This document shows positions 1 to 61,176 of a DNA stretch of 63,597 nucleotides, one piece after another. A model generated the notes under the pieces. That model did no database searches. It was not told where the DNA came from and saw only the letters and a program-made list of their open reading frames with translations. The number at the start of each line of letters is the position of its first letter. The stretch's first letter is position 1. Both the position numbers and the translations under genes were made by a program. This DNA comes from an uncultured virus (IMG/VR IMGVR_UViG_3300031134_000653) (taxonomy: Duplodnaviria > Heunggongvirae > Uroviricota > Caudoviricetes), in the IMG/VR virus record IMGVR_UViG_3300031134_000653. One strand, given 5' to 3'.

Positions 1-498
1 TGAAACGACCTCTACTTTTGTTACACGAGGATAAGTTTGAGAAATAGGGATGCTTACTCCTGTTGATTCAAACTTGTAGCTTTGACCGACAGTAAGGTTA
101 GCTGCAGGTGAACCTCCTTGGAGAGCTTCTGTGTCCCATTCAAAGCGACCGCAGTCAGTTTCGAAGAAGTTGGTTGTGTTCGTTCGTGTGACTGTGCAGG
201 TTTCTGAACCTTCGAAGTATTTTCCTGATAGCAAATCAGGAATGGTCTGTGGATTCACAAACAGATAGAATCCGAGGCTGATTGCGATGAGAATAACAAA
301 GCCAGTAGCAACCCGACGAAGGTTCAATGCACCTTTTTGAGTTTGACCTGCAAGTTTTCTGCGTTTGCGTTTTGTCGTCATACGCTTAGGGGCTTGAATA
401 GGAGCTCTTACTCTGTTTCCAGCAGATCGAGTGGGAGTTTTAGAAAAAGATGGAGGCGCTTGAATAGGAGCTCGGGACTCACTTCTTTCATCAGGCAT
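1..498 (-). CDS. membrane-anchored hypothetical protein, runs off window edge
   Basis: Not in ORF track. Read by hand from ATG 498: MPDERSESRAPIQAP...KRKRRK...TM (VATGFVILIAISLGFYLFV)...TDCGRF; no stop before position 1; CCGATA motif upstream at 533-538. Confidence 0.75.
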   Translation of the reverse strand, partial: MPDERSESRAPIQAPPSFSKTPTRSAGNRVRAPIQAPKRMTTKRKRRKLAGQTQKGALNLRRVATGFVILIAISLGFYLFVNPQTIPDLLSGKYFEGSETCTVTRTNTTNFFETDCGRFEWDTEALQGGSPAANLTVGQSYKFESTGVSIPISQTYPRVTKVEVVS

Positions 499-1128: not shown

Positions 1129-2007
1129 ATGCAAGAAAGGCATACGAACGTGAAAACAGTCCATCTTATCTCCCACCAGAATTGGCATCGGGATGAACTG
1201 GCGACTTCTGGCGAATGGACTGTTGATTATTCGCATGGTTTAGATGTCCCTGCTTATGAGCAGAAGGATGCATGGTGGCTTCCTCAAGCCCAAGCTGTTC
1301 AGCTGCTGCGAGCGGTTGAACATCATGGTCTTCCTGAACTCACTTTCACCGCACCAGCTCCTTACCTTCTGGATACTGTCCCTTCAGAGCTTTTGGGTCG
1401 CAGGGTAGAGACGATGACAGCTGAAGAAGCTGTATCAACTCTTTTCGAATGGCCCACTCTGTGGTGGAAGATGGCTACTGCTAAAAATGACCTGTTCCTG
1501 GCTAAAGAGCGAGACCATGCTGAACTGTTGAACTTGGTTCAGACTTTGGAACTTCCCACTACAGCAATCCTTCAATCTTCGACACCTTTGCCAGAAATTA
1601 TTTCAGAGTACCGCTTCTTTGTGGCAAAGAAGAAGCATGAGTACCTCATCCTGGCATCCAGCGGATACCTCAACAACGGAGTCAGCGTGTATGACGGAGC
1701 TGTGTTTGAGGAGAAGGAAGAGGAGAAAGCTGCAGAAGTCGTAGAACAGCTTTTTGACGCAGACATTGACCTCCCGCCTTCTTTTGTTGTGGATGTTGCT
1801 GTCACTGTTGACGGGGCTTTCATTCTTGAGTTCAACCCATCCTGGTGTTCAGGGTGGTATGAGTGTGAGATTGATGGAGTTCTTACTACCATTGAACGAG
1901 CTTTCAGAGTGACTCCTCGTGAGTACAAAGCTTGGGCTTATAACCCTGACCCTGTGCTGTTACAGAAGTTTGCTAACCCTGGAAGACGAATCTGGGGAAC
2001 CAGTTGA
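1129..2007 (+). CDS. ATP-grasp domain protein (DUF4343/R2K-like)
   Basis: EYRFFV...FVVDVA...ILEFNPSWCSGWY motifs. Confidence 0.75.
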   Translation: MQERHTNVKTVHLISHQNWHRDELATSGEWTVDYSHGLDVPAYEQKDAWWLPQAQAVQLLRAVEHHGLPELTFTAPAPYLLDTVPSELLGRRVETMTAEEAVSTLFEWPTLWWKMATAKNDLFLAKERDHAELLNLVQTLELPTTAILQSSTPLPEIISEYRFFVAKKKHEYLILASSGYLNNGVSVYDGAVFEEKEEEKAAEVVEQLFDADIDLPPSFVVDVAVTVDGAFILEFNPSWCSGWYECEIDGVLTTIERAFRVTPREYKAWAYNPDPVLLQKFANPGRRIWGTS

Positions 2008-2083
2008 CTTTTTAGAATACATCGTGATATGTTTAGTGGACCAAAGCAGGAGAGCTTTGGTCCACTAAACATTTGGAGAGATA

Positions 2084-2578
2084 ATGACTACTGCAACGCT
2101 GACTGTTCTTCCTGCTTCTGGAGACAAGGTTGTCCAGAGTGACTACAAGGTGAAAAGCTACAACCCTCGACAGGGACGTGACACTGAGCAGTTCGCTGCA
2201 AGCCTATACCGTGGCACGAAGAAGGTTGCTATCGTGGAGAATGAAGGCTCTGGTGGAGCTCACTGGTTCAGCTTTGTCAGCACGGAGGAGGCTCTGCTTT
2301 GGGATGAGTATGTTGCTCAGTACGACTGGACTGAGGACATTGAGACTGAGGACTACAGCTTCACTCTTCATTTTGACAAGGATGCCGTGTTTGACCGTCT
2401 CGCCAACGAGGTGGTCGCTGCACGCTGGCTGAACAAGATGGAGCGGACCCACCAGAAGTTCGTCATCGTCAAGGACCTTGAGGATGTCAAGAAGAATGTC
2501 TTCCTGATTGCAGGAATCCTTGATGTCGGAGATTTCGTGTGGAATGGTTCTGGTTGGGACCTTCACCAGGAAGTCTGA
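2084..2578 (+). CDS. hypothetical phage-type protein
   Basis: ORF with GGAGAG RBS, TTGACT..TATGTT promoter, VENEGSGG motif. Confidence 0.75.
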   Translation: MTTATLTVLPASGDKVVQSDYKVKSYNPRQGRDTEQFAASLYRGTKKVAIVENEGSGGAHWFSFVSTEEALLWDEYVAQYDWTEDIETEDYSFTLHFDKDAVFDRLANEVVAARWLNKMERTHQKFVIVKDLEDVKKNVFLIAGILDVGDFVWNGSGWDLHQEV

Positions 2579-8981: not shown

Positions 8982-10667
8982 ATGCCTGACCAAATTATTG
9001 CTACTGTCCCAGAGACTGCTAAAAATCCAGGAGTTTCCCTCTTTGATTTACTGAATATGCCCAAAGGCATCTCAGACCCATTAATTTTTGTGAAACCTGG
9101 AAAAGCCGAGCAGTCAGTAGAGAGTAAAGACCCTAACTATCTGTACTTTGAAGACGCAAAGCCAGTCAAGTCATCAGACAAGGGTGACATTTATGCGTAT
9201 CCCAGCAGGTACCACGGAAAGTCAGAATCTGGCTTTCCGTTGGAGTCCACTGATCTTTACGTGAACGATAAAACAGTGATTGTCAAAACTGTTTCTCATT
9301 CAGAGGGTGTCTCGAAGACAGATAAGAAATGGCACCGTTGGCAGACCACACGAACCATCGTGTTTTCACTGAAACAAGAACGTTTTGGCATGCCTCATCT
9401 TCGCATTTACGAAATTCTCCCTAAACGAAAGACTCGGCACAGGACTTTTAGAGATGTATCCCGGTCCTACAACATTCCCCAGTTGCACACAAGTTGGTCT
9501 ATGTCCCGCAAGGATATAGACCATATTCAGCATGCAATAGCTGGTAAAGTTTATGTCGGTTCCAAAGAGGATAGTTATGCTGGTGGCGTAGACTCCAGTG
9601 CTGCCTACTACCATGCTTTGTACCATGTAGTACAGAAGTACAAAGAGCTTGGTGGTGCTATTGACTTGTCCGCTATCGATTCTAAGAACCTATTTACCTT
9701 CTTAGCCTATCCAAGTCTTCGAATGTTCCAGTCTTCCAATCTGAAGAACATTGCTTTTGCTGTGCAAGCTAATAGCTCGGCTTGGTTGCATGAGCCAGAT
9801 GTCCGCGTGTTTGTACGAAAAGTCTTTGGCAAAAAAGCTGTCCGTAAAGATGTCATCAAAGCTGTAGCTAAAACAACTGATGCTTTAGCCATCAGCATCT
9901 GCAGCTACATCAAAAACTATGTACCTGCAGACTGGATTAGGGATTTACTGAACGACCCAGATAAGTACCGTCTTATCACACCAGCAAAAACTCGTGCAGT
10001 GTGGGACACTCCTTCCACAGTTCTTTACCCTGAACTGAAGAAACTTTTCAAGAACGCTTCTGAACATGAGAAACGTAAACTTGTCTTCCTGCCTGCAGAT
10101 GATGACAAAAACAGTGAAAGAATGTTCACTGACGCTTTGCTGTCGTTGTCCAAAATTTCAGAAGAAGACCTGGTTGAAAATTGGAAAGTCCTCGACTTTA
10201 CAAACTGGAAGACTCTTCACGACAAGTTAGCTATTGTCCACCGAAACATCAAAATCAAACCCGTCCCAATTCCTCAGGACGGTCTCACTGGTCTACTGGA
10301 CGGGAAGAGTTTCCAAGGGTTGAACCCTGAAGGAACCGAAAAAATTTACACCATCTCATCTCCTAAAGTGAACCATGACTTGTATGATTGGGGTAACGAG
10401 ATGAGTAACTGTATTGCCAGTTATAACGACCGAGTGCTTAGGAACGAAACCTACGTGTTCGCCGTGTATGAAGGTAAGACACTGTTCGCTAACATCGAAA
10501 TTTACGGTGAACGAGTGCGGCAGTTCTACGCAAAATACAACGGACGAGTTGAACCACATCTTCACACAGCTTTGCAAACTGTCTTGGATTCTGCTTTGCT
10601 TGAGCTCAGAGCTCAGGAGGAAGTCGCTGAGAAGAAGAAAAAATCTAAGCGAAAAACAGCTGTTTGA
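8982..10667 (+). CDS. PcfJ-like domain protein
   Basis: C-terminal LHD...DLYDWGNEMSNCIASY...IEI...RQFYAKYN pattern. Confidence 0.75.
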   Translation: MPDQIIATVPETAKNPGVSLFDLLNMPKGISDPLIFVKPGKAEQSVESKDPNYLYFEDAKPVKSSDKGDIYAYPSRYHGKSESGFPLESTDLYVNDKTVIVKTVSHSEGVSKTDKKWHRWQTTRTIVFSLKQERFGMPHLRIYEILPKRKTRHRTFRDVSRSYNIPQLHTSWSMSRKDIDHIQHAIAGKVYVGSKEDSYAGGVDSSAAYYHALYHVVQKYKELGGAIDLSAIDSKNLFTFLAYPSLRMFQSSNLKNIAFAVQANSSAWLHEPDVRVFVRKVFGKKAVRKDVIKAVAKTTDALAISICSYIKNYVPADWIRDLLNDPDKYRLITPAKTRAVWDTPSTVLYPELKKLFKNASEHEKRKLVFLPADDDKNSERMFTDALLSLSKISEEDLVENWKVLDFTNWKTLHDKLAIVHRNIKIKPVPIPQDGLTGLLDGKSFQGLNPEGTEKIYTISSPKVNHDLYDWGNEMSNCIASYNDRVLRNETYVFAVYEGKTLFANIEIYGERVRQFYAKYNGRVEPHLHTALQTVLDSALLELRAQEEVAEKKKKSKRKTAV

Positions 10668-15949: not shown

Positions 15950-17908
15950 ATGTCTAAACTTGTTCCCATTTCTCCTGAGTTGGCTGCCGAATGGCATCCA
16001 ACCAAGAACAACGTTGACATTGCCACAATCTCCGCCGGCAGTCACAGTTCAAGATGGTGGATAGGTCCTTGTGGACATGAGTTTTCCGCCTTGGTAAAAC
16101 ACCGATCAAAAGGTTCAGGATGTCCTTATTGTGCTGGAAAAGCAATTTTACCAGGCTTCAATGATCTGGCTACAGTTCGACCAGACTTGGCTCAAGACTG
16201 GGATCATTCTCGTAATTACTTGGCTGCTAATTCTGTTGGAATCTCCAATAAAATTCCTGTTGCTTGGAAATGTTCAGTTGGTCACGAATGGGTGAGCTCG
16301 GTTTCAGTAAGAAGTCGCAAACTCACGAATGAATGCCCTGTATGTCAAGGTAGAAAAACAATCAACCTTTTACCTGAACCTGTGGTGAAAGCAGTGCCTA
16401 ACAACTTGGCTGTAACAAACCCTGAGCTTTTGTCCAGTTGGGACAGTGGTCTCAACCAAGGATTAAGCTACGAACGGCTAACTCCAGGTTCAGAGATAAA
16501 AGCTTGGTGGAACTGCGAAATAGGCCACTCATACCAAATGCCTATTGCCAAACGAACTAACGGTAGAGGATGTCCTTTCTGTTCAGGTAAGTCAGTCCTG
16601 CCTGGTTTCAACGATTTAGTGACAAAGGACCCAGCTTTAGCTCAAGAATGGCATCCTACGCTCAATGGAGACCTCAAGCCCCGAGAGATTTCCGCTGGTT
16701 CGCATGCCAAATTCTGGTGGCAATGCAGTCAGGGCCATTCGTGGCAGGCTTCCATCGACAATCGAGGTCGAAATAAGAGAGGCTGTCCTTATTGTGCGGG
16801 GAAAGCTGTTCTCATTGGATTCAACGATTTAGCTACTACAGAACCAGTGCTTGCTACGGAATGGCATCCCACCCTAAATCTTGCATTGAGTCCTCAATCC
16901 GTTAGTAGAGGGTCAGACCAAAAAGTATGGTGGCAGTGTGACGAAGGACATGAATGGCAGATGTGGGTTTATGCTCGCTCAGGAGGACATGGCTGTCCTG
17001 AGTGTTGGGCAAAGAGCTACATTTCGAAACCTGAAAGAGAACTCTATGTTTTCCTTACTTCGTTAGGCTTTGAAGTCATTCAGTCTGACAGAAAAGTCTT
17101 AGGTAAAAATCAAGAGATTGATCTGTACCTCCCTGAGAAGCAGTTTGGTATTGAGTTCAATGGACTATACTGGCACAACGAGTATTGGAAAGATTCCCAG
17201 TACCATCTACAGAAGTTTGAAGCTGCTAAAGCTGCTGGAGTTCAATTAGTACAAATTTGGGAAGACGATTGGAATAAACGAAAGAACACTGTTCTTCGAG
17301 CGTTAGCTCACAAGCTGGGAGTCTCAAAAAAATTAGCGGGCCTTTATCCAGAGCTTTCTGTCGAAACAGAAACCGTTTATGCTCGCAAGACTTCAGTGAC
17401 GGAGCTATCTACCGAGCAGGCACGTACTTTTTTGGAGATGAATCACATCCAAGGTTTTGCCTCTGGCTCCTGTTATCTCGCTTTGTCAGATGACAATAGT
17501 CGTGTTCGTGCAGTTATGGTCCTCAAAAAGGAAGCAGATAACACTTTGAACATTGTCCGCTACGCGACAGCTGGAAGTGTTACAGGTGGGTTTACAAAAC
17601 TGTTAAAGCATTCTGAGAAGACGTATTTTCCGAGTTCGTTCATTACGTTCGCTGACCATACCATCAGTGATGGTGGGTTGTATGAGAACAATGGTTTTAC
17701 TGCTGATAAAGAACTACCACCAGATTACATGTATGTTGCAAGAGCAGAACGTAAACACAAGTTCGGTTACCGTCTTAAACGGTTCCAAAACGACCCTGCC
17801 CTTGTTTGGCAAGAAGGACTGACAGAACGAGAGCTTGCTCTACTAAACAATCTTCCTCGAATCTGGGACGCAGGTAAAACACGATATCGCTTGAATTGCT
17901 CAAACTAG
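15950..17908 (+). CDS. zinc-ribbon repeat protein with PD-(D/E)xK nuclease and C-terminal GNAT-like region (Hef-like homing endonuclease-type)
   Basis: About 5 WxCxxGHxW...GCPxC repeats; EIDLYLP..FGIEFNGLYWH; NHIQG, GGFTKLL, FAD, IWDAG. Confidence 0.8.
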   Translation: MSKLVPISPELAAEWHPTKNNVDIATISAGSHSSRWWIGPCGHEFSALVKHRSKGSGCPYCAGKAILPGFNDLATVRPDLAQDWDHSRNYLAANSVGISNKIPVAWKCSVGHEWVSSVSVRSRKLTNECPVCQGRKTINLLPEPVVKAVPNNLAVTNPELLSSWDSGLNQGLSYERLTPGSEIKAWWNCEIGHSYQMPIAKRTNGRGCPFCSGKSVLPGFNDLVTKDPALAQEWHPTLNGDLKPREISAGSHAKFWWQCSQGHSWQASIDNRGRNKRGCPYCAGKAVLIGFNDLATTEPVLATEWHPTLNLALSPQSVSRGSDQKVWWQCDEGHEWQMWVYARSGGHGCPECWAKSYISKPERELYVFLTSLGFEVIQSDRKVLGKNQEIDLYLPEKQFGIEFNGLYWHNEYWKDSQYHLQKFEAAKAAGVQLVQIWEDDWNKRKNTVLRALAHKLGVSKKLAGLYPELSVETETVYARKTSVTELSTEQARTFLEMNHIQGFASGSCYLALSDDNSRVRAVMVLKKEADNTLNIVRYATAGSVTGGFTKLLKHSEKTYFPSSFITFADHTISDGGLYENNGFTADKELPPDYMYVARAERKHKFGYRLKRFQNDPALVWQEGLTERELALLNNLPRIWDAGKTRYRLNCSN

Positions 17909-24903: not shown

Positions 24904-24955
24904 GCTTAAACAGTAAAGGCAACCCATTCACTTGGGTTGCCTTTACTGTTTAAGC
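24904..24955. terminator. bidirectional hairpin, 23-bp arms
   Basis: GCTTAAACAGTAAAGGCAACCCA-ttcact-TGGGTTGCCTTTACTGTTTAAGC. Confidence 0.85.
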
Positions 24956-25256: not shown

Positions 25257-26063
25257 TCAGTTCGCCATTAAGTCGGTAAAACCGAACAGGTACAAATGTG
25301 TGAAGAAGTAGACACTGGAACCCAGGACCAAAGCAGTTCCGCCGGCTTGGATAAGACTCCTTCGAACATACCTTCTTCGGGACGCTCTCTGTAAGTTTTT
25401 GAACCAGGCGAATCGAGCAGTCTGCTCTTGGAGCTCGTCTTTGTAGGAATGAGACCAGAAATCGCTGAGAACCATCTCCTCCACCGGAAGTTCAGAGCTA
25501 AGGTTTTCTTTGTTTCGGCTTCTCTCCTGGGAACGTATGAATTTAACCAGCGTGCTAATTTCAAGCATCTCGACATCTGAATGGGCTTTGACTGTCAAAG
25601 ATTTCACTCCTACGTACACAATTAGAGGAATAACTGAAGTGCCGTATGCAAGCTTTTTCTCGACACGATCTGCTTCGTATTTAGAGTTGCGAATGTACGG
25701 TTGATTCTTTCCATCAACAAGCACTGTGCGGTTGGTTGACCAAATTCGTTTACCTTGAAGGTTCTTCGTATTGAGAGTGTAAACCACACCTGAAGGAGTA
25801 ATAATTACATGGTCAATATCTGAACCTCGCACACCAATGGGAACAGAATGGAGTACGACATAACCGTCTTTTTCCAGCTCCTTCAGGACTTTACCGACCT
25901 GAATTTCGCCTTGCAGCCCGATGTACCAGCTCCGAGTTTCGGGCGTAAGAGGTGACGCTCCGAAAGCACGAGCCAGCCAGTTTTGTGCAGGCAGCTCTGT
26001 TTGGAGTGAGTACAATTTATTCACGAGGCTGTACCCTGGCCGGTGTTCCAGAAGATTAACCAT
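25257..26063 (-). CDS. NERD (nuclease-related domain) protein with C-terminal TM
   Basis: GLQGEIQV...VLHSV...DIDHVIITPSGVVYTLNTKN. Confidence 0.85.
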   Translation of the reverse strand: MVNLLEHRPGYSLVNKLYSLQTELPAQNWLARAFGASPLTPETRSWYIGLQGEIQVGKVLKELEKDGYVVLHSVPIGVRGSDIDHVIITPSGVVYTLNTKNLQGKRIWSTNRTVLVDGKNQPYIRNSKYEADRVEKKLAYGTSVIPLIVYVGVKSLTVKAHSDVEMLEISTLVKFIRSQERSRNKENLSSELPVEEMVLSDFWSHSYKDELQEQTARFAWFKNLQRASRRRYVRRSLIQAGGTALVLGSSVYFFTHLYLFGFTDLMAN

Positions 26064-29855: not shown

Positions 29856-29904
29856 AAAGAGGTAAGGCTCTGAATCTTAACTCGATTCAGAGCCTTACCT
29901 CTTT
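29856..29904. terminator. hairpin, 21-bp arms
   Basis: AAAGAGGTAAGGCTCTGAATC-7-GATTCAGAGCCTTACCTCTTT. Confidence 0.85.
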
Positions 29905-30893: not shown

Positions 30894-31928
30894 CTACTTG
30901 GTCTCAGCGATGAGTCGTTCATCAACCATCTGGATAATAGGGAAATTCATATGGTCGCCTTTTTTGAACTTGCCCCATCGTTGGTAGCTTTCGTCGCTTT
31001 GTGAGTAACCTCTGCTGTATTGGCTGTTGAGGTCTTTTCTGTCTGAAGCAAACTCAAAACGCTGTGAACGGCGGTTACCTGTGATGCGGAACTTCGTGTT
31101 GCGAGGTAGGAGTATCTCTTTCTCCAGGGATTGGATGTCTCCTCCTCTTGATTTTTCCTCTGGCTGAAGGGAAGCTCCTTGCTTTGAGAGTATCTCCATG
31201 ACTACATACCCATGGTTTTTTGTTCCACCATTTCTGTCATGCATGTGAGCCATAATGAATTCAGGGTCAGCTGTAGTTGACATGAACCCTTTCTCCTTGA
31301 AAGCTTCCCCTGTTTTGAAGTACCGTTCGATGTATTCGTTAGGTGACACTCCGGCTGGCACTCTGAAGAAACGGTACAGTTTACGTGGACCTTCAGGTTC
31401 CTTCGCGGAAGCCAAAGCTTCGTCTAAATTCTTGATATCCCGGGGAACATTCTCCTCTAAGTCTTCTCGATAGAAAGGGTTCTCTCGAATCAGCTCTGGA
31501 AGTCCTTTCTTTCTCAGAACAGTGTTCACTAATTCGAATAAAGTCATTGTGTAACGTCTTACGCTGTTTGACTGGTCTCGGGTGAGGCTGTTAGCCCACT
31601 CTTCTTGCTCTTCGAAAAGCTTAGCTGTGTGGGCAAGGCGTTCTTCAGTGTCAAGACCAGTTATAGCTTCACGTGATTTCTTACTCAGTAAATCCAGCAG
31701 TTCTTGCGGTATCGGCTTCTGATTCGGCTTCTCCTGAAAAGGTAACGTCTCAGGAAGGTGCTCTCTCACCAAGTCCTTGTGGGCTTCTTTCCAACTCTGG
31801 ACGGCTTTCTCTGCAAGACGTTCTTTGTTGTACTCATTGCGATGCTTGTAACGTGCTTTTCTTCTGACATTAGCTATGGCGTCTGCGTATTCACAGCGTT
31901 GTCCGCCATCTGCTTTTGCTTTGCACAT
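30894..31928 (-). CDS. ADP-ribosyltransferase (VIP2/exoenzyme R-S-E type) with MCKAKADGGQRC N-terminus
   Basis: KLYRFF, KGFMSTT, EKEILLPRNTKFRI. Confidence 0.85.
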   Translation of the reverse strand: MCKAKADGGQRCEYADAIANVRRKARYKHRNEYNKERLAEKAVQSWKEAHKDLVREHLPETLPFQEKPNQKPIPQELLDLLSKKSREAITGLDTEERLAHTAKLFEEQEEWANSLTRDQSNSVRRYTMTLFELVNTVLRKKGLPELIRENPFYREDLEENVPRDIKNLDEALASAKEPEGPRKLYRFFRVPAGVSPNEYIERYFKTGEAFKEKGFMSTTADPEFIMAHMHDRNGGTKNHGYVVMEILSKQGASLQPEEKSRGGDIQSLEKEILLPRNTKFRITGNRRSQRFEFASDRKDLNSQYSRGYSQSDESYQRWGKFKKGDHMNFPIIQMVDERLIAETK

Positions 31929-32156
31929 AGGATTCCCTTTTCTCCGTCTTTTGACATACTCTTTATCGGTCAATTCCTTATGTTTGCAAGGAATTTAGAG
32001 GGGTCAATTATGAAACGAGGCTGATTATATAGGAACTTTATCTTGGCTCCAGTCACGCCCATACTTTACTATAAGTGCATATATGAGTGGTTTTAGATAC
32101 CCTGGTGCGATTAGATCAAGACTGGTAGATTGAAGTCCTATGAAGGAGAGAATCCA

Positions 32157-35190: not shown

Positions 35191-36384
35191 TTACTGTGAA
35201 TTTAGCCACGTTCCTATCAATTTTACTGTCTTGCTCAGGTCTTTGTCTTTACGAGAATATGGAATATTTAGTTGGTATAAATGCGGATGACTTAAAGGTA
35301 TCATTGCCAATTTATTCTCTCTTATTCTAATAACTCGAAAACCATTTTCTATCAACAGAAGAGTCTTTTGTACGTCTTTCTTCACTACGTCTTTATCACG
35401 ATGCCATAAAAATCCATCATATTCTATAGCAACATCATAATTTTTGTATTTACCTAATATATCAGGATATATTATTCTATCAGATAATACTAGTTTAGTT
35501 CTATGGGTGTTGGGCACTTCAGCCAGTAAAGTTGTAGCGAGTATGTCTCGATAAGCCTGTTCTATCTTTGAAGTTGAAGTAGAGCAACACTCGGGGCATT
35601 GCGTTCCTTGCTCTTTTGTTCGATTGAAAACAGAAGCTGTCCATCTATGACCTAAAGAGCAAACCCATTTTATTTTCTTTTCACTCCCTGAGGTAACTTC
35701 GTTAGGAGTAAGAGTGTTGTGCAAATAATCCCACTCTTTTAGTAAAATAGGATGAGTGGTAGCTAAGTTCGTTACTCCAACGTCTGGAGAATAACGGGAA
35801 CAGTATGGACAGCCAGACCCCCGCACTCTAGTACGTGGAGAAGACTGCCAGCTGTGAGTTTTGTTGATAGAACATTGCCACCATACCTTTTTGGCCGTTC
35901 CAGTAGTAACTTCTTCTGGAGTAATGTCATTCTTTTCTGGGTGCCATTGAATAGCAAGTTCTGGGTGTTTAAAACGGAAGTCATTGAACCCGACTAGGAT
36001 TTGTTTACCGCTACAAATCTTACATTCATACTTGTTCAATGTTCGATCAGCAATTCTATCCTCCCATAGATGGTCAGAATAAGATGAACATCTCCACCAA
36101 ACTTTTTTGTTTGAACCAGCTTGTACAGGCTTATTGGGAATACCATTGCGTTCGATAACCCATTGTTGCCAAACATCAGGATAAGTAAATTCTATACCTG
36201 AACAAGTAGGACATCCTCTGGCGGTGCGAGCAACATCTCTAATAGGCATAATCCACTTGTGTTGATTCAAACACACAAAGTAAGATTTTTTAGGAGAGTT
36301 GACTGAGAGAGCTAAAACTTCTGGTTCAGGAAAATAATCTAAATCATTTTCTTGATAATACTGGTATAACGTTTGACCAATCAT
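35191..36384 (-). CDS. zinc-ribbon repeat protein with C-terminal PD-(D/E)xK (Vsr/DUF559-like) nuclease
   Basis: KKVWWxC..H.W...CPxC repeats; PDI..IEYDGFLWH...D..KT...GFRVIRIRE. Confidence 0.8.
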   Translation of the reverse strand: MIGQTLYQYYQENDLDYFPEPEVLALSVNSPKKSYFVCLNQHKWIMPIRDVARTARGCPTCSGIEFTYPDVWQQWVIERNGIPNKPVQAGSNKKVWWRCSSYSDHLWEDRIADRTLNKYECKICSGKQILVGFNDFRFKHPELAIQWHPEKNDITPEEVTTGTAKKVWWQCSINKTHSWQSSPRTRVRGSGCPYCSRYSPDVGVTNLATTHPILLKEWDYLHNTLTPNEVTSGSEKKIKWVCSLGHRWTASVFNRTKEQGTQCPECCSTSTSKIEQAYRDILATTLLAEVPNTHRTKLVLSDRIIYPDILGKYKNYDVAIEYDGFLWHRDKDVVKKDVQKTLLLIENGFRVIRIRENKLAMIPLSHPHLYQLNIPYSRKDKDLSKTVKLIGTWLNSQ

Positions 36385-39675: not shown

Positions 39676-41262
39676 ATGCTTAAGTTTCACTCTGTCCTAA
39701 AATCTTCCCGCGCTGCCATCGATCTGGCTTCCATCATGGTTGGTGTTATCATCATTGGTCTGATTGGTGGCGTCATCGCGGCTACCGTCTTCGCTGTCAT
39801 CCCTTGGTCTCAAGACAAAGCAGCCAAACAGCAGCTGGAAGCTATTGCTACGGCTGAAAATGCCCAGTACGGTAAATCCTCCGAAGGTAACAGTAAGCCT
39901 TTCTATGGCGACTCTGCGACTTTAGCTTCAGGTGGTTGGTTGCAGCAAGGCGAAAACTATTGTGTAGTCACTCCAGATGAGGATAAGCAATCCTACAAAG
40001 CAGCTGTCAAATCAGCCTCTGGAAAAGTGTTTGTTTCTACCAACAAAGCCCCTAACCCTGTCGAAGCAATGACAGGCGAAACTACTTGTATTGGTGTTGG
40101 CACCGGAACTGGGGGCTCAACTCCTGAAGTGGGCAATCCTACGAACCCTACTGCTGTGAACTTCCTTCCATCAAACATGGGTACTGCCGCTCATATGATT
40201 GTCAACAAAAATAACAAGCTTTACTCTTGGGGTAACAATATTTATGGGCAGTTGGGTGATGGCACTACGGTCAACAAGAAAGCTCCTGCAAGTGTTCAGG
40301 ATGGTCGATTCACACAAATTACATCTAACTTAAACTTCACAGTAGCTTTACAGGATGACAACACTTTGTGGGCTTGGGGAAGAAATGACAGCGACTGGCT
40401 AAACGTAGGCAGTGTAGGCAACATAGTAACTCCCACAAAAGTTGTTGTCGCTGGAACACCTCTTGCAGGAAAAACCATCAAACAAATTTCTGCAAGCAAT
40501 TCTTTCTACTATGTTCTGACATCTGACAATGAAGTGTACAAATCAACTGTACGCTTTGGAACTAAAGTTAACTTTGCGGGAACTTCATTGGTTGGGAAAG
40601 AAATAGTAAAACTCGCTACTGATGTTGATTCTGATGCATATTTCCTTCTTTCTTCAGAAGGTAAAGTCTATGGAGGAGGAGATGGAAGGAACTATGTCCA
40701 AGCTGACAGAGACGGAACCATCCACACAGCACCTTTCCATGAAATTCAAACCACAAACAGCACTATGGCAGGCAAATTCATTACTGACATTGCGGTAGGA
40801 GGAAACACTGTTCGGGTACTCACATCAGACAACAAACTGTACGGATGGGGATACAACGAAACTGGTCAGTTAGGTTTTGCCAACAAGTCTATTTTAGTAC
40901 CTACAGAAACTTCGTTAGTGAACACTCCGTTAGCAGGTAAAACGATGACTAGCCTTGCAGCTGGCTCTGGACATACTCTAGTCTTGACTGATGAAGGTAA
41001 AGTATACTCAGCAGGCTCGAACGCTGCCGGAGAAAGAGGTTCCAGTAGTACAACTGTAGCGGTTCCTTATATTGCAGTTGAAACAGCAAACACTCCAATG
41101 GCTGACCAAAAAATTGTGGCAGTATCAGCTGGAAAAGCTTCATCCTATGCGTTAGATTCCAACGGCAAGTTGTATGCTTGGGGTGTGAATGCTAGTGGAC
41201 AGATGGGTAACGGAACTACAACCATTCAAAAATTGCCTATAGAAGTGACGTTTGCTGAATAA
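39676..41262 (+). CDS. pilin-like N-terminus fused to RCC1/BLIP-II beta-propeller
   Basis: AAIDLASIMVGVIIIGLIGGVIAATVFAVIPWSQD; repeated LYxWGxNxxGQLG. Confidence 0.85.
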   Translation: MLKFHSVLKSSRAAIDLASIMVGVIIIGLIGGVIAATVFAVIPWSQDKAAKQQLEAIATAENAQYGKSSEGNSKPFYGDSATLASGGWLQQGENYCVVTPDEDKQSYKAAVKSASGKVFVSTNKAPNPVEAMTGETTCIGVGTGTGGSTPEVGNPTNPTAVNFLPSNMGTAAHMIVNKNNKLYSWGNNIYGQLGDGTTVNKKAPASVQDGRFTQITSNLNFTVALQDDNTLWAWGRNDSDWLNVGSVGNIVTPTKVVVAGTPLAGKTIKQISASNSFYYVLTSDNEVYKSTVRFGTKVNFAGTSLVGKEIVKLATDVDSDAYFLLSSEGKVYGGGDGRNYVQADRDGTIHTAPFHEIQTTNSTMAGKFITDIAVGGNTVRVLTSDNKLYGWGYNETGQLGFANKSILVPTETSLVNTPLAGKTMTSLAAGSGHTLVLTDEGKVYSAGSNAAGERGSSSTTVAVPYIAVETANTPMADQKIVAVSAGKASSYALDSNGKLYAWGVNASGQMGNGTTTIQKLPIEVTFAE

Positions 41263-51908: not shown

Positions 51909-51961
51909 GGTTAAATAGTTGTACCCCTGAAAGTGGATTTCAGGGGTACAACTATTTAACC
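51909..51961. terminator. bidirectional hairpin, 24-bp arms
   Basis: GGTTAAATAGTTGTACCCCTGAAA-gtgga-TTTCAGGGGTACAACTATTTAACC. Confidence 0.85.
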
Positions 51962-54587: not shown

Positions 54588-55076
54588 TTACTGCTGGTGC
54601 TGAACCTGCTCGTACTGGAGGGGCTGCGTAGCCTGCTGCTGCATGAACTCCTGCTCAATCTCCTCAGCCGTGTCGAACGAATCAACAGGGATGACAGCCT
54701 GACCAGTCACCGCAGCCTGCTGAATGGCAGCCTGCATTGCAGCACGCTGAGCAATCAGCTTCTTGCGGACCCGAAGGACCTCACGGATGAAGACAGCGGC
54801 AGGAACAACCGCCCAGATGACGAACGCCGTGAAAATCGTCCAGTTGCTCTGAGCCAGAGCCGTGGTGTGGATGGTGAGGTAGGTGAACGTGAAAGCCGCG
54901 ACCCACAGGAAGCCGACAGCAATCTGAGCGAGGAAGGTCTTCCAAACCGTACCCCAGAGGACGGCAAGGACAGCCTTACCAGTCTGAGCCATGGGAGCCA
55001 CGATGGGCTTCAGCGTCTCACGGTTCTGGTAAGCAGCACCGACCGCCGAGGTGACAATCTTAGTGGGGAAAGGCAT
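54588..55076 (-). CDS. membrane protein with Gln-rich tail
   Basis: 2-3 TM, GC3-rich codons. Confidence 0.75.
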   Translation of the reverse strand: MPFPTKIVTSAVGAAYQNRETLKPIVAPMAQTGKAVLAVLWGTVWKTFLAQIAVGFLWVAAFTFTYLTIHTTALAQSNWTIFTAFVIWAVVPAAVFIREVLRVRKKLIAQRAAMQAAIQQAAVTGQAVIPVDSFDTAEEIEQEFMQQQATQPLQYEQVQHQQ

Positions 55077-55150
55077 TGGTTTCTCTTCTCTCTTGTTCAA
55101 CCGATGATGTAACATCAGCTTATCAAAGGAAAATCACCAGCGCAACCTAT

Positions 55151-56417: not shown

Positions 56418-57473
56418 ATGGAGCCGCTGTTTTATGTTGTGAAACTCTTAGCTTTAGCTTACATGGGTGGAATGCCCACACCTCCAACGACTGTACCTGC
56501 TGAAGTGCAAGTGCAGTATGTTGCAAACGCCACAGTAATCTCTGAAGACACTGTAGTGGTTGAGAAGAAGCAGGAAGAAGAGAAGAAAGAAGCAGAAGCT
56601 GCTGAACAAGTTCCTGTTGAAGAATCACCAACAGTAAAAGAGAACTTGCAGCTTCCTTTACCTTCGAAATCGTACGCTTTCACCAGCAACTACGGGTCAC
56701 GCTGCCCTCCTACTAGAGGAGCTTCCTCATTCCATCGTGGAGTTGATTTAGCTGCTCCAGATGGAACTCCTCTGTATGCTATTCAAGCTGGAACTATCAC
56801 AAAGGTTGTTGACGGAGTTAAAGGTGGGACAGGAGGAACAGTCATTCTGGCAACCACTATCAATGGTGAACGAGTGGACTTTTTCTACCACCACATGGCT
56901 AACTCTTCCCAGTATGTGAAAGTCGGAGATGTCGTCACTGCTGGACAACAGATTTCAGCAGTAGGTTCAACAGGTGTTTCTACTGGAGCTCACCTTCACC
57001 TCGAAGTATGGGAAGGTGGATATGGTTCAGGCGAATCAACCAACCCAGAACTGTACTTCAAGAAAATCCAGCTTCCTGTGATTGACAACGCCTATGCCTC
57101 AAGTGTTGTATCAGAAGAGACATCATGCCCTGCTCCTGTTAGCGCTCCTGCTCCTTTGCAGTTCCCGACAACAGTGCCACCAAAGGCAACTCCTTCTGCT
57201 CCAGCTGCAGCCCCTGCAGCCCCTGCATCCCCTGCGCCGTCAGCTGCACCTTCAAGTCCAGCACCTACGCCAAGCAAACCAGCAACACCAACTCCTGCAC
57301 CAACTCCTACTACCCCAGCACCAGCACCAGCTCCATCTCCCGCACCTACTACTCCACCGAAGCCTGTGACTCCAGTACCAACCACACCGCCGGCTCCTGT
57401 AGAACCAGTAGTTCCAGCACCAGTTCCGAGTGCTGCACCAGCCCCAGCTGCTTCAGCTGCTCCTGTTGGGTAA
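56418..57473 (+). CDS. M23 family peptidase with Pro/Ala/Thr-rich tail
   Basis: HRGVD, YHHM, VGSTGVSTGAHLHLE. Confidence 0.92.
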   Translation: MEPLFYVVKLLALAYMGGMPTPPTTVPAEVQVQYVANATVISEDTVVVEKKQEEEKKEAEAAEQVPVEESPTVKENLQLPLPSKSYAFTSNYGSRCPPTRGASSFHRGVDLAAPDGTPLYAIQAGTITKVVDGVKGGTGGTVILATTINGERVDFFYHHMANSSQYVKVGDVVTAGQQISAVGSTGVSTGAHLHLEVWEGGYGSGESTNPELYFKKIQLPVIDNAYASSVVSEETSCPAPVSAPAPLQFPTTVPPKATPSAPAAAPAAPASPAPSAAPSSPAPTPSKPATPTPAPTPTTPAPAPAPSPAPTTPPKPVTPVPTTPPAPVEPVVPAPVPSAAPAPAASAAPVG

Positions 57474-57479
57474 CTAACT

Positions 57480-57514
57480 AAGAAGGCCCGCAACCATTGG
57501 TTGCGGGCCTTCTT
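57480..57514 (+). terminator. hairpin, 17-bp arms
   Basis: AAGAAGGCCCGCAACCA-t-TGGTTGCGGGCCTTCTT. Confidence 0.85.
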
Positions 57515-57650: not shown

Positions 57651-57767
57651 ATGCGATTAGGTCGTATTTTGAGCGTGCAAAACATTGTAGATGTACCAGC
57701 TGTAGAAACATCTGATGAAACAACGGAGGAGAACAGTCTTGTTACGTCCTCTTCCAAGGGACGATGA
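57651..57767 (+). CDS. 38-aa small protein coupled to next gene
   Basis: Not in track. GAAAGGA RBS; MRLGRILSVQNIVDVPAV...; ATGA overlap with 57764. Confidence 0.6.
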   Translation: MRLGRILSVQNIVDVPAVETSDETTEENSLVTSSSKGR

Positions 57768-58366
57768 CTAACAAGAAATACATTGGAACACCTACAAACA
57801 TCACAGACTCTTTGACTCCAGTTGTAGGTTACAAAGCTGCATCCCTGCTGATGCACCTAAAGACTAAATACGCTTCAGTTCTTCCTGCTCATTTTAGTAA
57901 CCAGTCTTTTGAATTCTCAGATCGGTGCCAATGTCGTAAAGCTGCGAGGAAAAGACACGACTTTCTTGCATGCAGCTGCGGTTTCTACGCATACAAAGAC
58001 TTAGCAGATGCAAGCCATCATCGACACATCCAGCAAGGAACACTTGTTTTTGAAGTGGCTCTTTCAGGGGCTGTCGTTACAGCTGAAAACGGGTATAAAG
58101 CTGAACGCCAACGAGTAACTCGAATCTATGCAAACAACTGCAAATACTGTCCAGAAGAAGCCTACTGTTTCGCTCTGCCTGAGATAGCCAAATCTCCTTT
58201 CGAGCGTTTGACTACCGTGTGTTTCGCTCATGCGTTACACCTAGACTTATCTCAGCGGATAATGTTTGAAGAGATAGCCCAAAAAGCTTCTTACGAAGGA
58301 TACCCACCTGTTGAAATAGCTCCTAACAAAAATTCTTTGCCCTACTATCCCGAAGGTTCCTACTAA
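57764..58366 (+). CDS. Cys-rich hypothetical protein (CSCGFYA motif)
   Basis: H..CSCGFYAY...VALSG.V...GYKAERQRV. Confidence 0.75.
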   Translation: MTNKKYIGTPTNITDSLTPVVGYKAASLLMHLKTKYASVLPAHFSNQSFEFSDRCQCRKAARKRHDFLACSCGFYAYKDLADASHHRHIQQGTLVFEVALSGAVVTAENGYKAERQRVTRIYANNCKYCPEEAYCFALPEIAKSPFERLTTVCFAHALHLDLSQRIMFEEIAQKASYEGYPPVEIAPNKNSLPYYPEGSY

Positions 58367-59625
58367 TGCCCAGACATGCGAAAATGCGTCCAGTAAGCAA
58401 GAGAAGTAAAATTTTGCGTGGAGTTGGACTTGTAGCTGGTTTCGCTCTCATCCTTGGAGTCGGCGTTGGAGGCTACACTGTTTGGGACTTGAACAGAAAT
58501 TTGAAGCAAAACTCTGTTGACATTGGAACCGGTAACCCGACAGCTCAGACTAAAGCTCCTGAAGTTGAGACAACTGTTGACGAATTCGAAGGTGCTTTCA
58601 CCATGCTCCTTGTCGGTAACGACGATGGTAACGGTGAATCCAAATACGGAGTTCGAGATAAAGCTTTGAACGACGTAAACATTCTTCTGCATATCTCTGC
58701 AGATCACACCAAAGCAACAGCCATTTCAGTCCCAAGAGACACTCTGGTCGACATCCCTCAATGCACTAACGAAGAAACTGGAGCAATCACACCAGCTTCT
58801 TACGGAGTGAAAATTAACCAGTCTTTGAGTCGAGGGGGTTTGAAGTGCGTGGTTGACACTTTCCGCCAGTTGACAGGTGAAGAAATTCCTTATGCTGCGA
58901 TGATTCAATTCGAAGGCGTAATTGCTCTGTCTAACGCAGTTGGAGGTGTTCCTGTTTGCGTGTCTTCAGATATCAATGACTCACTTTCTGGACTGAACCT
59001 GACCGCTGGAGAACACACTCTGCAAGGAGACCAGGCCCTGGCGTTCCTGCGTACTCGACATGGAGTAGGTGATGGTTCTGACTTGGGGCGTATCTCGAAT
59101 CAGCAGGTGTTCCTGTCTTCCTTGATGAGAACCTTGAAGTCCTCCGACACTTTATCTAACCCTAAAAAGGTTTATGACATTGCCCAAGTGGCTGCCGAAA
59201 ATATGACTTTTTCAACAAATTTGGCATCAGTGCCGACTTTAGCGTCTTTGGCTTACACGTTGAAGGATGTTCCTTTGGGTAACATTTCATTCCTCCAATA
59301 CCCTACTTACTACACGACTGTCAGCGGTTCTGAGCAGGTTGTGACAGATGATGCGTCTGCAAGAATCATGCTGGATGCAGTCTTTTCTGACCAAAAAATT
59401 GAAATCACAGGAGGTACTGGTCCTGGACAAATCGGTTCTGTAGACCAAACCCCTGAGCCAACAGTGGCTCCTGTGAGTCCTTCCACTCCAACGTCTTCCC
59501 CGACAAGCGCAGCCGGACCTACTGGGACCCCTACTTCAGAGGAGACAGCTGTAGCTTTACCTGACTCAGTGACAGGGCAGACAGCTGAACAAAGTACTTG
59601 TTCTCGTGGGTTCGGTGACTATTAA
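58366..59625 (+). CDS. LCP (LytR-CpsA-Psr) family protein
   Basis: TM; LLVGND, SVPRDT, AVGGVPVC, ALAFLRTRHG..DGSDLGRISNQQ. Confidence 0.93.
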   Translation: MPRHAKMRPVSKRSKILRGVGLVAGFALILGVGVGGYTVWDLNRNLKQNSVDIGTGNPTAQTKAPEVETTVDEFEGAFTMLLVGNDDGNGESKYGVRDKALNDVNILLHISADHTKATAISVPRDTLVDIPQCTNEETGAITPASYGVKINQSLSRGGLKCVVDTFRQLTGEEIPYAAMIQFEGVIALSNAVGGVPVCVSSDINDSLSGLNLTAGEHTLQGDQALAFLRTRHGVGDGSDLGRISNQQVFLSSLMRTLKSSDTLSNPKKVYDIAQVAAENMTFSTNLASVPTLASLAYTLKDVPLGNISFLQYPTYYTTVSGSEQVVTDDASARIMLDAVFSDQKIEITGGTGPGQIGSVDQTPEPTVAPVSPSTPTSSPTSAAGPTGTPTSEETAVALPDSVTGQTAEQSTCSRGFGDY

Positions 59626-59628
59626 ACG

Positions 59629-59851
59629 AAGAAGACCCCTGAGCTGCTTGAGAGAGGAGAGAGAGATTAGCAGCTCAGGGGTCTTCTTTGAGGAAGGGTT
59701 ATGCCAGGAGGTGTCTCGACCGGCACATTTTCACTCGACCATTTTTAGGAGAGAGAGAAGTTAGGCTTCGTGAACCTTCCTGTCAGTAGTAAACACTATG
59801 TAATGAAAAAGCATTCCGCTTTCTAACTTCGTAATGTCTCTGTGCTGACAT
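59629..59851 (-). ncRNA. candidate sRNA with anti-SD tracts (may also encode a 22-aa leaderless peptide 59851-59783)
   Basis: Promoter TTGACT-17-TAATGT (59885-59857); ends in 20-bp hairpin 59629-59688 with CU-rich loop. Confidence 0.6.
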
Positions 59852-59913
59852 TGATAACATTACTCATTAGAGACTTAGAAGTCAAATCGTCTTTCGTTCG
59901 GGCGTGTCGGGGT

Positions 59914-60441
59914 TTACTTCAAAGTTGTTTGAGCGTAACCGCCAACAGAGTTCCCACTTAGAGCAGTCATGTACACTTCATAGTTCAGTTGGTCTGCCAT
60001 GATGGAGTATTGGACTCCTACTAATGAAGGATACCGGTTCACAATTAGGTCAGCTGGGGCTTCTTCAGGGGTAGCTTCAGGGTTTGCTTCTAACCAGCTT
60101 GTGATGTTCGCAGCTGTTGCTTCTGTATCAGCAGTAACTTCACCTTGCACTCTCATGGTGTCTTTTACCTCAGTGTATTCAGCAAACTGCTCAGGAGTGA
60201 GGTCTCTGGTTTTTGGGTCATCTTCAGGTAATGTTGCACCCTTTTCAGAGTACTGCTGCCAACGTTCAGCATCATGGGAGATGGGGTTGTATGTTGGGTA
60301 TTTTGTTTGGTCTTCTGGTGAGACCTGTTCGTTGATGACGTTTCCGTAGGATTCGGTAGGTACTGGCTCTGGAGCTTCGTTGGTGCAACCAACCAGAAGA
60401 AGCATTGGCAGTACCAGGATCGGGATAAAAATTTTCTTCAT
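59914..60441 (-). CDS. lipoprotein
   Basis: MKKIF...LLVGC lipobox; CCGATA 8 nt before ATG. Confidence 0.8.
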   Translation of the reverse strand: MKKIFIPILVLPMLLLVGCTNEAPEPVPTESYGNVINEQVSPEDQTKYPTYNPISHDAERWQQYSEKGATLPEDDPKTRDLTPEQFAEYTEVKDTMRVQGEVTADTEATAANITSWLEANPEATPEEAPADLIVNRYPSLVGVQYSIMADQLNYEVYMTALSGNSVGGYAQTTLK

Positions 60442-60518
60442 ACAACCATTATCGGGTTTTAGGCCGATGATGCTAGAACAACTGATAAACTGTAAGTGTT
60501 GTCTATTTAGGAGAAAAT

Positions 60519-60788
60519 ATGTTCGCATTCCTTATTGTACTTTTTGCTGTCATCGGCGGTGGGGTGGGTTTCCTGCTTTCCCGTGTCGATAACACAGCTT
60601 CCTCAGCTTTGAGATGGAAAACCATTGGTCTGGGTGTACTTGGAGGAGCTCTTGTTGGTGCAGGTATCTGGCTGTCCTTCTGGCTTCTTGCCGCTGCAGT
60701 TAGACTGATTTTCTGGGTGATTCTCCTGGTTATTGCAGCTGCTGTGATTTACTTCGTGTACCGTTCGTTGAAGCGTAGATACGCATGA
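60519..60788 (+). CDS. membrane protein
   Basis: 3 TM; AGGAG RBS. Confidence 0.75.
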   Translation: MFAFLIVLFAVIGGGVGFLLSRVDNTASSALRWKTIGLGVLGGALVGAGIWLSFWLLAAAVRLIFWVILLVIAAAVIYFVYRSLKRRYA

Positions 60789-61033
60789 GTTCAGTTCGAA
60801 AAGAACTACTAAGAGGAGGGTTCGTGCTTGCAGTAATTGCTGCAGCAGGAGCCCTCCTCTTCAGCTGGAAAACATTTGCCATGCCAAGTCTGTCTGCAGC
60901 GTTTCTTATTGATGGTAATGCGGAGACGCAAATCCAGAATCTGCTGCTCATTATGGGCATCATGCTGATTGTACTTGTCGGCTTAGTCGTATGGACCACA
61001 ATTTTGACAGTGAGAGTATTTCACAAGTCTTAA
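60785..61033 (+). CDS. membrane protein
   Basis: 2 TM; ATGA overlap. Confidence 0.7.
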   Translation: MSSVRKELLRGGFVLAVIAAAGALLFSWKTFAMPSLSAAFLIDGNAETQIQNLLLIMGIMLIVLVGLVVWTTILTVRVFHKS

Positions 61034-61037
61034 ACAT

Positions 61038-61080
61038 GAAGAAGGCATACCATGAGCAAGTAAACTGGTATGCCTTCTTC
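61038..61080. terminator. hairpin, 15-bp arms
   Basis: GAAGAAGGCATACCA-13-TGGTATGCCTTCTTC. Confidence 0.8.
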
Positions 61081-61176
61081 GTGTTCTTTAGAGTTAACCA
61101 ACCAAGGAAAGGTTCTAATACCCTTTTCGGTAGAAAATAGCTTTTCTGTACAAAAAACGCACTTTATTTCTGTGAA

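Follow-up and report, generated by a model that had tools for sequence, protein, structure and literature searches.

The 63,597-nt stretch of DNA analysed here (IMG/VR record IMGVR_UViG_3300031134_000653, catalogued as an uncultured virus of the Caudoviricetes and hereafter called the window) carries on its minus strand a gene for a small RNA (sRNA) of about 220 nt. The gene occupies a 288-nt spacer (59626-59913) on which an LCP gene on the plus strand and a lipoprotein-like gene on the minus strand converge. It is conserved among relatives, selected as an RNA and present in RNA libraries, and it constitutes a new RNA family of a familiar regulator type, sRNAs with CU-rich or C-rich loops being known in Firmicutes and Actinobacteria. 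A preliminary description made from the letters of the window alone had proposed that an independent sRNA gene lies here on the minus strand, and this proposal was borne out, as promoter, transcription-start region and terminator were conserved in three lineages. By analogy with known RNAs, there is a slightly better than even chance that the sRNA acts in trans, its redundant CU seeds pairing with GA-rich leaders or ribosome-binding sites of mRNAs.

Conservation of the sRNA unit in three lineages

As a comparison set, we used 158 loci centred on LCP genes and drawn from both metagenomes and species genomes. In six of these loci, the sRNA unit was recovered immediately downstream of LCP; the six represent three metagenomic lineages: that of the window, with L001 (an identical strain, 100% LCP identity), L002 and L013 (96% each); that of L003 and L004 (66%); and that of L005 (62%). 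The linkage between sRNA and LCP gene was retained in all three. Alignment of the six spacers revealed four invariant blocks, namely the upstream box GACACGCCCGA, TTTGAC, GTA.TGT and TGTC. Box, promoter and the CU core UCUCUCUCUCCU were retained across lineages, and most other sequence, including the hairpin stems, differed. Outside these motifs the MAFFT alignment of the three lineages is unreliable because they are too diverged, and the upper terminator stem is misaligned.

At the L005 locus, a Peptidase_M78/IrrE-like gene (1849-2385, minus strand, E = 7.5e-05) replaces the lipoprotein gene, and box and promoter stay in place, which indicates that the RNA travels with its own promoter and the LCP gene. 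The same locus retains the neighbouring small membrane-protein gene, a homologue of window 60519-60788.

Within the loci and genomes searched, the sRNA was found in one narrow clade only. Scanning genome contigs with a single LCP protein confirmed nothing, and a scan with an LCP alignment returned 80 loci (best LCP identity 52%), none of which had the sRNA. The combined pattern of box and -35 hexamer was present in neither of two further genomes. Its sole match among 401 sampled Microbacteriaceae genomes (L159) was judged to be due to chance, the site being high in G+C and followed by neither TAWTGT nor a CU tract. A further 28 matches in viral contigs were rejected on the same grounds of chance: none had a downstream CU tract, and the CU tract of one (L172) lay about 385 nt upstream.

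Promoter, upstream box and shared terminator

The promoter takes the form TTGACT-17-TAATGT in the window, TTGACG-17-TATTGT in L003 and TTGACT-18-TATTGT in L005. The preliminary description had placed the window's promoter correctly on the minus strand but had called it near-consensus, which was too generous given that the -10 hexamer agrees with TATAAT at 3 of 6 positions; a promoter consensus scan did not list the site. The form TANNNT is typical of actinobacterial -10 elements, and TAATGT agrees with it. The conserved TGTC begins 7 nt past the -10 hexamer in all three lineages. Upstream, the box GACACGCCCGA occurs as a single exact copy in the window, where sites with up to two mismatches number nine against 8.7 expected. 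From its invariance we predict that it is probably the site of an activator or another regulator.

The perfect 20-bp terminal hairpin reported in the preliminary description was confirmed: its arms (59629-59648 and 59669-59688) are 20 nt each and 100% complementary, and it begins 4 nt past the LCP stop codon. With a GC-containing stem-loop and a U-rich tail, it has the makeup of an intrinsic terminator. This tail is UUCGUUU on the minus strand; on the plus strand, UGAGG follows the CUUCUU end of the stem. A terminator scan did not list it because the loop limit of the tool is 8 nt.

In length and perfection the hairpin resembles an ordinary bidirectional terminator serving convergent genes. 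The window holds 16 intergenic perfect inverted repeats of 17-24 bp (e.g., 51909-51961, 24904-24955, 29856-29904 and 57480-57514), often without an obvious U tract, and these look like the usual intrinsic terminators of the organism. The sRNA hairpin differs from the others in its loop, which is 20 nt long as against 1-13 nt in the other 15, and the length of this loop is the one unusual feature. It also differs in that the loop sequence is conserved while the stem varies. Between the window's lineage and that of L003 and L004, 15 loop positions are invariant and the stem changes yet remains paired: its lower part differs by a single G-C to A-U exchange, and its upper part is wholly different (5 bp versus 7 bp). 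The exact hairpin-stem pattern had no match in viral contigs.

Fold, CU tracts and selection as RNA

A 228-nt RNA from this locus had a predicted folding energy of -87.9 kcal/mol, compared with a mean of -54.4 (sd 4.0) for 200 shuffled sequences, none of which was as stable (z = -8.4). The structural elements and the features around them are listed in Table 1. All sequence features named in the preliminary description are present at the positions it gave, including the long-range AGGAAGG/CCUUCCU helix (RNA nt 71-77 with 155-161), the two occurrences of GGUCGAG and the three CU-tract motifs. Analogous purine/pyrimidine closing helices were present in L003 (AAGGAAAG/CUUUCCUU) and L005 (UUGGAGGG/CCCUCCAA).

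Table 1. Features of the sRNA locus and related sites in the window
Feature	Position	Strand	Remarks
Conserved upstream box GACACGCCCGA	59898..59908	-	invariant in 6/6 aligned loci (3 lineages); 11-12 nt upstream of TTTGAC
-35 hexamer TTGACT	59885-59880	-	TTTGAC invariant; TTGACG in L003, TTGACT in L005
-10 hexamer TAATGT	59862-59857	-	spacer 17 nt (18 in L005); TATTGT in relatives
sRNA, ~220 nt	59629..59851	-	predicted 5' end 59849-59851, 3' end directly past hairpin
5' hairpin (RNA nt 1-70)	59782..59851	-	RNAalifold, 3 strains
Central domain	59691..59781	-	closing helix AGGAAGG/CCUUCCU, 59781-59775 with 59697-59691
Central CU tract CUUCUCUCUCUCCU	59760-59747	-	core UCUCUCUCUCCU conserved in 3/3 lineages
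CACCUCCU tract	59713-59706	-	restricted to window's lineage; mostly paired (predicted)
Terminator-loop tract UCUCUCUCUCCUCUCUC	59666-59650	-	unpaired probability 1.00, fully exposed (predicted)
Bidirectional terminator hairpin	59629..59688	both	20-bp stem, 20-nt loop; shared with LCP gene
LCP (LytR_cpsA_psr) gene	58366-59625	+	Pfam PF03816, E = 1.8e-38; convergent with sRNA
Lipoprotein-like ORF, 204 aa	59914-60528	-	upstream of sRNA promoter; matches no Pfam family
GA-rich leader AAGAGAGAAGAGAAACCA then AUG	55077..55100	-	gene 54588-55076; candidate target

Of the three CU tracts, the central and terminator-loop ones are conserved across lineages and predicted to be unpaired in relatives; the CACCUCCU tract is lineage-specific, and pairing is predicted for it. 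Thermodynamic modelling gave the central tract a mean unpaired probability of 0.94 in L003 and 0.84 in L005. The RNA contains the motif UCUCUCUCUCCU twice, once centrally and once in the loop of the terminator. With up to one mismatch, GGAGAGAGAGA has three sites in the window against 2.2 expected, a count that is not significant, and both exact copies lie in the spacer. The terminator of L005 is plain, and a near-identical CU loop, AAUCUCUCUCUCCUAUCUCUC, is carried there by a separate AACCU/AGGUU hairpin inside the UUGGAGGG/CCCUCCAA helix. Tract length shifts in steps of 2 nt: the loop of L002 is longer by 2 nt, the central tract of L004 is shorter by 2 nt than that of L003, and an RNA contig (X18) lacks 2 nt at 59749. 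These three independent cases represent dinucleotide slippage that is tolerated within a retained tract.

We then compared the RNA with its flanking genes in the closest strains, which are about 91% identical. The 3' 152 nt (59630-59781) were identical at 151 positions to L013 and at 150 to L002, whereas third codon positions of three flanking genes were 73-83% identical to the same two loci. Within this part, the central domain matched at 91/92 and 90/92 positions, respectively. In the 5' hairpin, RNAalifold analysis of three strains found two compensatory G-C to A-U exchanges (pairs 12:63 and 22:52). One-sided changes kept three further pairs (3:70 and 11:64 in the same hairpin, 128:149 in the central domain), and two pairs were broken (26:48 in the 5' hairpin and 163:226 at the base of the terminator stem), which gives two compensatory and three one-sided pair-preserving changes against two disruptive ones. 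The RNA contains many G-U pairs, which become A-C mismatches if it is read from the other strand, and the minus sense was predicted to be more stable than the plus sense at 3 of 4 loci. Judged from these sequence comparisons, the RNA is under strong purifying selection.

The preliminary description had also suggested that the 5' part encodes a leaderless 22-aa peptide, and this was not borne out, since the reading frame is not conserved in relatives. In L013, 8 of the 66 nt differ, causing four amino-acid changes and two silent ones; among six replacement changes in this ORF, three restore or create RNA pairs, one retains pairing in the form of G-U and one disrupts a pair. The start site of L003 lacks an ATG, and L005 has an unrelated 12-aa ORF. 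Should the transcript begin at the G of the conserved TGTC, it would not contain the AUG. There is no sense-strand gene downstream, and the RNA is therefore not a leader or riboswitch.

Detection in metatranscriptomes

Five phyllosphere metatranscriptome runs contained a small share of the region, and four of them were aligned to 58300-61100. Contigs confined to the sRNA were found in three of these four runs, one in each (59682-59842, 59674-59842 and 59662-59841). They showed no base mismatch, and the 59662-59841 contig had a 2-nt deletion. Their common end at 59841/2 lies 7-10 nt downstream of the predicted start, as loss of extreme 5' ends would produce, and the other ends lie within the perfect inverted repeat, where assemblies break. 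The LCP gene was covered in none of the four runs, although absence of contig cover is weak negative evidence. The lipoprotein gene was covered only in the fourth run, the one without an sRNA contig. Matches of 18 nt by two longer contigs, at 59205-59222 and 60405-60422, were rejected as spurious. This pattern fits a discrete and relatively abundant transcript from the conserved promoter, and we infer that the detected RNA comes from the minus strand.

Ribosome-binding sites and candidate targets

The observation in the preliminary description that ribosome-binding sites of the window read AGGAGAG held up: 4 of the 16 occurrences of this motif lie 3-6 nt before the starts of long ORFs (10722, 21954, 27346 and 32157). 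None of the 26 occurrences of AGGAGG is so placed before a start. Among 70 hand-picked genes, an SD-like (Shine-Dalgarno-like) 4-mer was present at 25 starts. In the same set, TANNNT peaked 6 nt upstream of the start codon (9 genes, background 1-3 per offset), and about 16 starts look leaderless, which suggests from sequence that many mRNAs of the window lack a leader.

The leader of gene 54588-55076 (minus strand) is the candidate target that emerged as a lead from modelled pairing. Among ten orthologous starts, it had the strongest predicted pairing with the sRNA in both lineages compared, at about -15 and -20 kcal/mol. The L003 orthologue (locus ~230-270, minus strand) has the leader GAGAGAGAAGAGAGAAGAUA followed by AUG, so that a GA-rich leader is conserved between two lineages with 66% LCP identity. 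The gene encodes a small membrane protein of no Pfam family, and its GA-repeat leader is without a canonical GGAG. Duplexes computed between the full-length sRNA and leaders gave implausibly long interactions.

The M23 peptidase gene contains a run of 21 purines (AGGAAGAAGAGAAGAAAGAAG) at 56572-56592 (plus strand), which codes for a linker rich in Glu and Lys. The run is identical in L001 and reads AAGAAGAAGAGAAGAAAGAAG at the same site in L013. A CU-rich RNA could possibly pair here as well.

A proposed mode of action and the evidence against it

A mechanism can be proposed in which a conserved sigma-A-type promoter would drive a stand-alone gene for a structured RNA of ~220 nt on the minus strand, from ~59851 to 59629, with the GACACGCCCGA box upstream as a probable regulator site. 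Transcription would stop at the hairpin common to the convergent LCP gene. Two loops of the RNA, an internal one and the unusually large one of the terminator, would display UCUCUCUCUCCU, and one or both CU tracts would pair in trans with GA-rich leaders or Shine-Dalgarno sequences of mRNAs. Such pairing may alter the translation or stability of these mRNAs, as LhrC, RsaE/RoxS and 6C do via C/U-rich loops. In this scheme we infer the regulator site, the base-pairing mode and all targets. Among the features generally looked for in a trans-acting base-pairing sRNA, a conserved promoter and terminator of its own are present, as is a structure kept by compensatory change together with no conserved reading frame.

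Several points weigh against this proposal. For the window RNA, the model pairs most of the central tract (mean unpaired probability 0.29) and also the CCUCCU within CACCUCCU (0.01-0.03). Target prediction by RNAduplex over the whole window was not discriminating: its top non-self hits, at about -20 kcal/mol, were mostly intragenic and not at ribosome-binding sites. The pairing with the candidate leader was only weakly above that of shuffled leaders, as 21/300 and 6/300 shuffles equalled it. Slippage-prone CT repeats could recur partly through mutation bias, and the independent lineages with the sRNA number only three. No terminator separates the lipoprotein gene from the sRNA promoter, and part of the RNA could for that reason be derived from a 3' untranslated region. 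As for expression, the contigs show neither strand nor true ends, the RNA libraries may contain DNA, and the three runs with sRNA contigs share year and habitat and possibly come from one sampling campaign.

The proposal has a more elaborate form, in which slippage-prone (CU)n seeds would tune by strain which GA-rich leaders are bound and how strongly, and a general anti-Shine-Dalgarno mimic, as envisaged in the preliminary description, might damp leadered mRNAs and spare leaderless ones. We regard this extension as doubtful, with a chance well short of one in five.

Alternative explanations

The RNA might bind a protein instead of an mRNA, its CU tracts being recognised by a factor specific for single-stranded pyrimidines that is thereby titrated or recruited, so that the RNA would serve as a sponge or scaffold. 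Pyrimidine-RNA binders such as Rho (with its preference for YC dimers), ribosomal protein S1, cold-shock proteins and KH-domain proteins are candidates. The two copies of UCUCUCUCUCCU and the 2-nt length steps would suit a binder that reads composition, and the whole-window scan gave no convincing mRNA target. CU motifs that are redundant and tolerate changes in length are just as typical of base-pairing sRNAs, however, and the lead provided by the GA-rich leader favours pairing. We consider a protein partner unlikely.

A second alternative is that the sRNA is a cis-encoded partner of the LCP mRNA, with loop-loop pairing or convergent transcription controlling 3'-end stability or termination. 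The shared terminator makes the CU loop of the sRNA perfectly complementary to the 20-nt GA loop of the LCP mRNA, 12 nt of which are also matched by the central tract. The strongest duplexes in the window (-37.9 and -33.8 kcal/mol) are indeed those with the plus-strand spacer, and the closeness of the hairpin to the LCP stop codon points the same way. Such complementarity is automatic for any shared bidirectional terminator, though, and in L005 the shared terminator has no GA/CU loop and the CU tract sits in a separate hairpin beyond the reach of the LCP mRNA. The persistence of the LCP linkage in all three lineages, even where the other neighbour was replaced (L005), would agree with a cis role, but synteny alone can account for it. 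We hold this explanation to be rather improbable.

That the locus has no dedicated RNA function, and is just a long spacer with a bidirectional terminator, a promoter-like sequence that arose by chance and CT microsatellites made by slippage, is very improbable. Terminators in this DNA are normally long perfect hairpins, the CT tracts do show slippage, and the -10 hexamer is weak relative to TATAAT and missing from the scan list. Against these stand the near-identity of the RNA to L013 and L002 where third codon positions have diverged, the invariance of box, -35, -10 and CU core at 62-66% LCP identity, the compensatory pairs and the RNA contigs, which in 3 of 4 runs do not extend beyond the unit.

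Least probable of all, with scarcely any chance, is an mRNA for the small protein MSAQRHYEVRKRNAFSLHSVYY, whose ORF exists with an ATG (59851-59849) at a plausible transcription start and in a window where leaderless-looking starts are common (TANNNT 6 nt upstream in 9/70 genes), but whose frame is altered by amino-acid changes in L013, lacks its ATG in L003, is replaced by an unrelated ORF in L005 and would lose its AUG to a start at the G of TGTC.

Comparison with known sRNAs

With Rfam 15 covariance models, no match at the gathering score was found anywhere in the window, and the family search thus assigned the RNA to none. At E-values of up to 10, sub-threshold hits in the three lineages arose mostly from the terminator hairpin, and no family was common to the lineages; eight of the ten in the window were miRNA precursors. 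LhrC did not appear even below threshold, either in the window or in the L003 and L005 spacers.

The trans-acting reading draws on several RNAs of similar design. RsaE/RoxS, FsrA, SprD and RNAIII pair with Shine-Dalgarno regions through unpaired C/U-rich motifs. The sRNA described here likewise has C/U-rich motifs, which most models leave unpaired, and differs from them in motif, architecture and phylum and in having no Rfam match. These RNAs are named as UCCC-motif sRNAs of Firmicutes in PMC4132741.

The nearest parallel in design is LhrC of Listeria monocytogenes, which, according to PMC4132741, is induced by envelope stress via LisRK and pairs with the ribosome-binding region of lapB. Like LhrC1-5 (PMC4132741), the sRNA is a stand-alone RNA whose redundant CU-rich motif occupies both an internal loop and the loop of the terminator; the resemblance is one of design only. 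The setting is also comparable, in that LhrC targets a cell-envelope mRNA (PMC4132741) and the sRNA lies among LCP, M23 peptidase and lipoprotein genes. The LhrC promoter depends on an envelope-stress regulator (PMC4132741), and the promoter here has a conserved upstream box. The present RNA differs from LhrC in having no sequence or covariance-model similarity to it, in being actinobacterial and in occurring as a single copy in the window. Its motif is a (CU)n repeat ending in CCU, and UCCC is found nowhere in the window RNA.

Among Actinobacteria, 6C binds several mRNAs through C-rich loops without a known chaperone, as stated in PMC6486639. Both are actinobacterial sRNAs with pyrimidine-rich hairpin loops (PMC6486639), but 6C has C-run loops and occurs across high-GC Gram-positives, whereas the RNA described here has alternating CU, no Rfam 6C match and a distribution limited to one narrow clade. 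Full-text literature searches found no description of this sRNA family, and no regulatory RNA described for Microbacteriaceae or their uncultured plant-associated relatives.

Genomic setting and host

The preliminary description had treated the locus as part of an element, which was not supported. At least 7 kb around it are syntenic with a 788-kb contig (L013, about 92% nucleotide identity) and an 883-kb contig (L003), and because the synteny extends into contigs of this size, the locus belongs to the chromosomal core and not to a mobile element. When 1.6 kb around the site was searched against phage and plasmid collections, no match was found. The best named relatives of the LCP protein are from Microbacteriaceae (Planctomonas, Leifsonia and Gryllotalpicola; 43-52% identity), metagenomic proteins reach 55-69%, G+C across the window is 38-50%, and the DNA of the region is present in plant, phyllosphere, straw and food metagenome runs. 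The host is an uncultured low-GC plant-associated actinobacterium related to Microbacteriaceae.

The left two-thirds of the window resembles a variable island, with G+C down to 38-39% at 34-38 kb. Island-like ORFs lie at 8982-10667, 15950-17908, 25257-26063, 30894-31973, 35191-36384 and 39676-41262. The proteins include a PcfJ-like protein, two DUF4379 treble-clef zinc-finger proteins with weak REase_MTES_1575 matches, a NERD nuclease-related protein, an ORF with an ADP-ribosyltransferase exoenzyme-type domain and an RCC1-repeat protein. Immediately before the LCP gene, a 200-aa ORF of no known family (57764-58366, plus strand) overlaps the LCP start codon in an ATGA, an arrangement suggestive of translational coupling; a tblastn search of L003 for this ORF returned no homologue.

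Implications

Hardly any work exists on regulatory RNAs in Microbacteriaceae and in their uncultured relatives that live with plants. The sRNA family presented here is well supported for a computational case, with a promoter and putative regulator box, selection, covariation and metatranscriptome contigs. Its unusual points are the microsatellite-like (CU)n seeds, whose length varies by strain, and the 20-nt terminator loop and upstream box, both of them conserved. It establishes no new principle, and it illustrates that a terminator loop can bear a conserved functional motif. With cell-wall assembly genes as neighbours and a design like that of envelope-stress sRNAs, the sRNA offers an entry point to post-transcriptional control in these bacteria.

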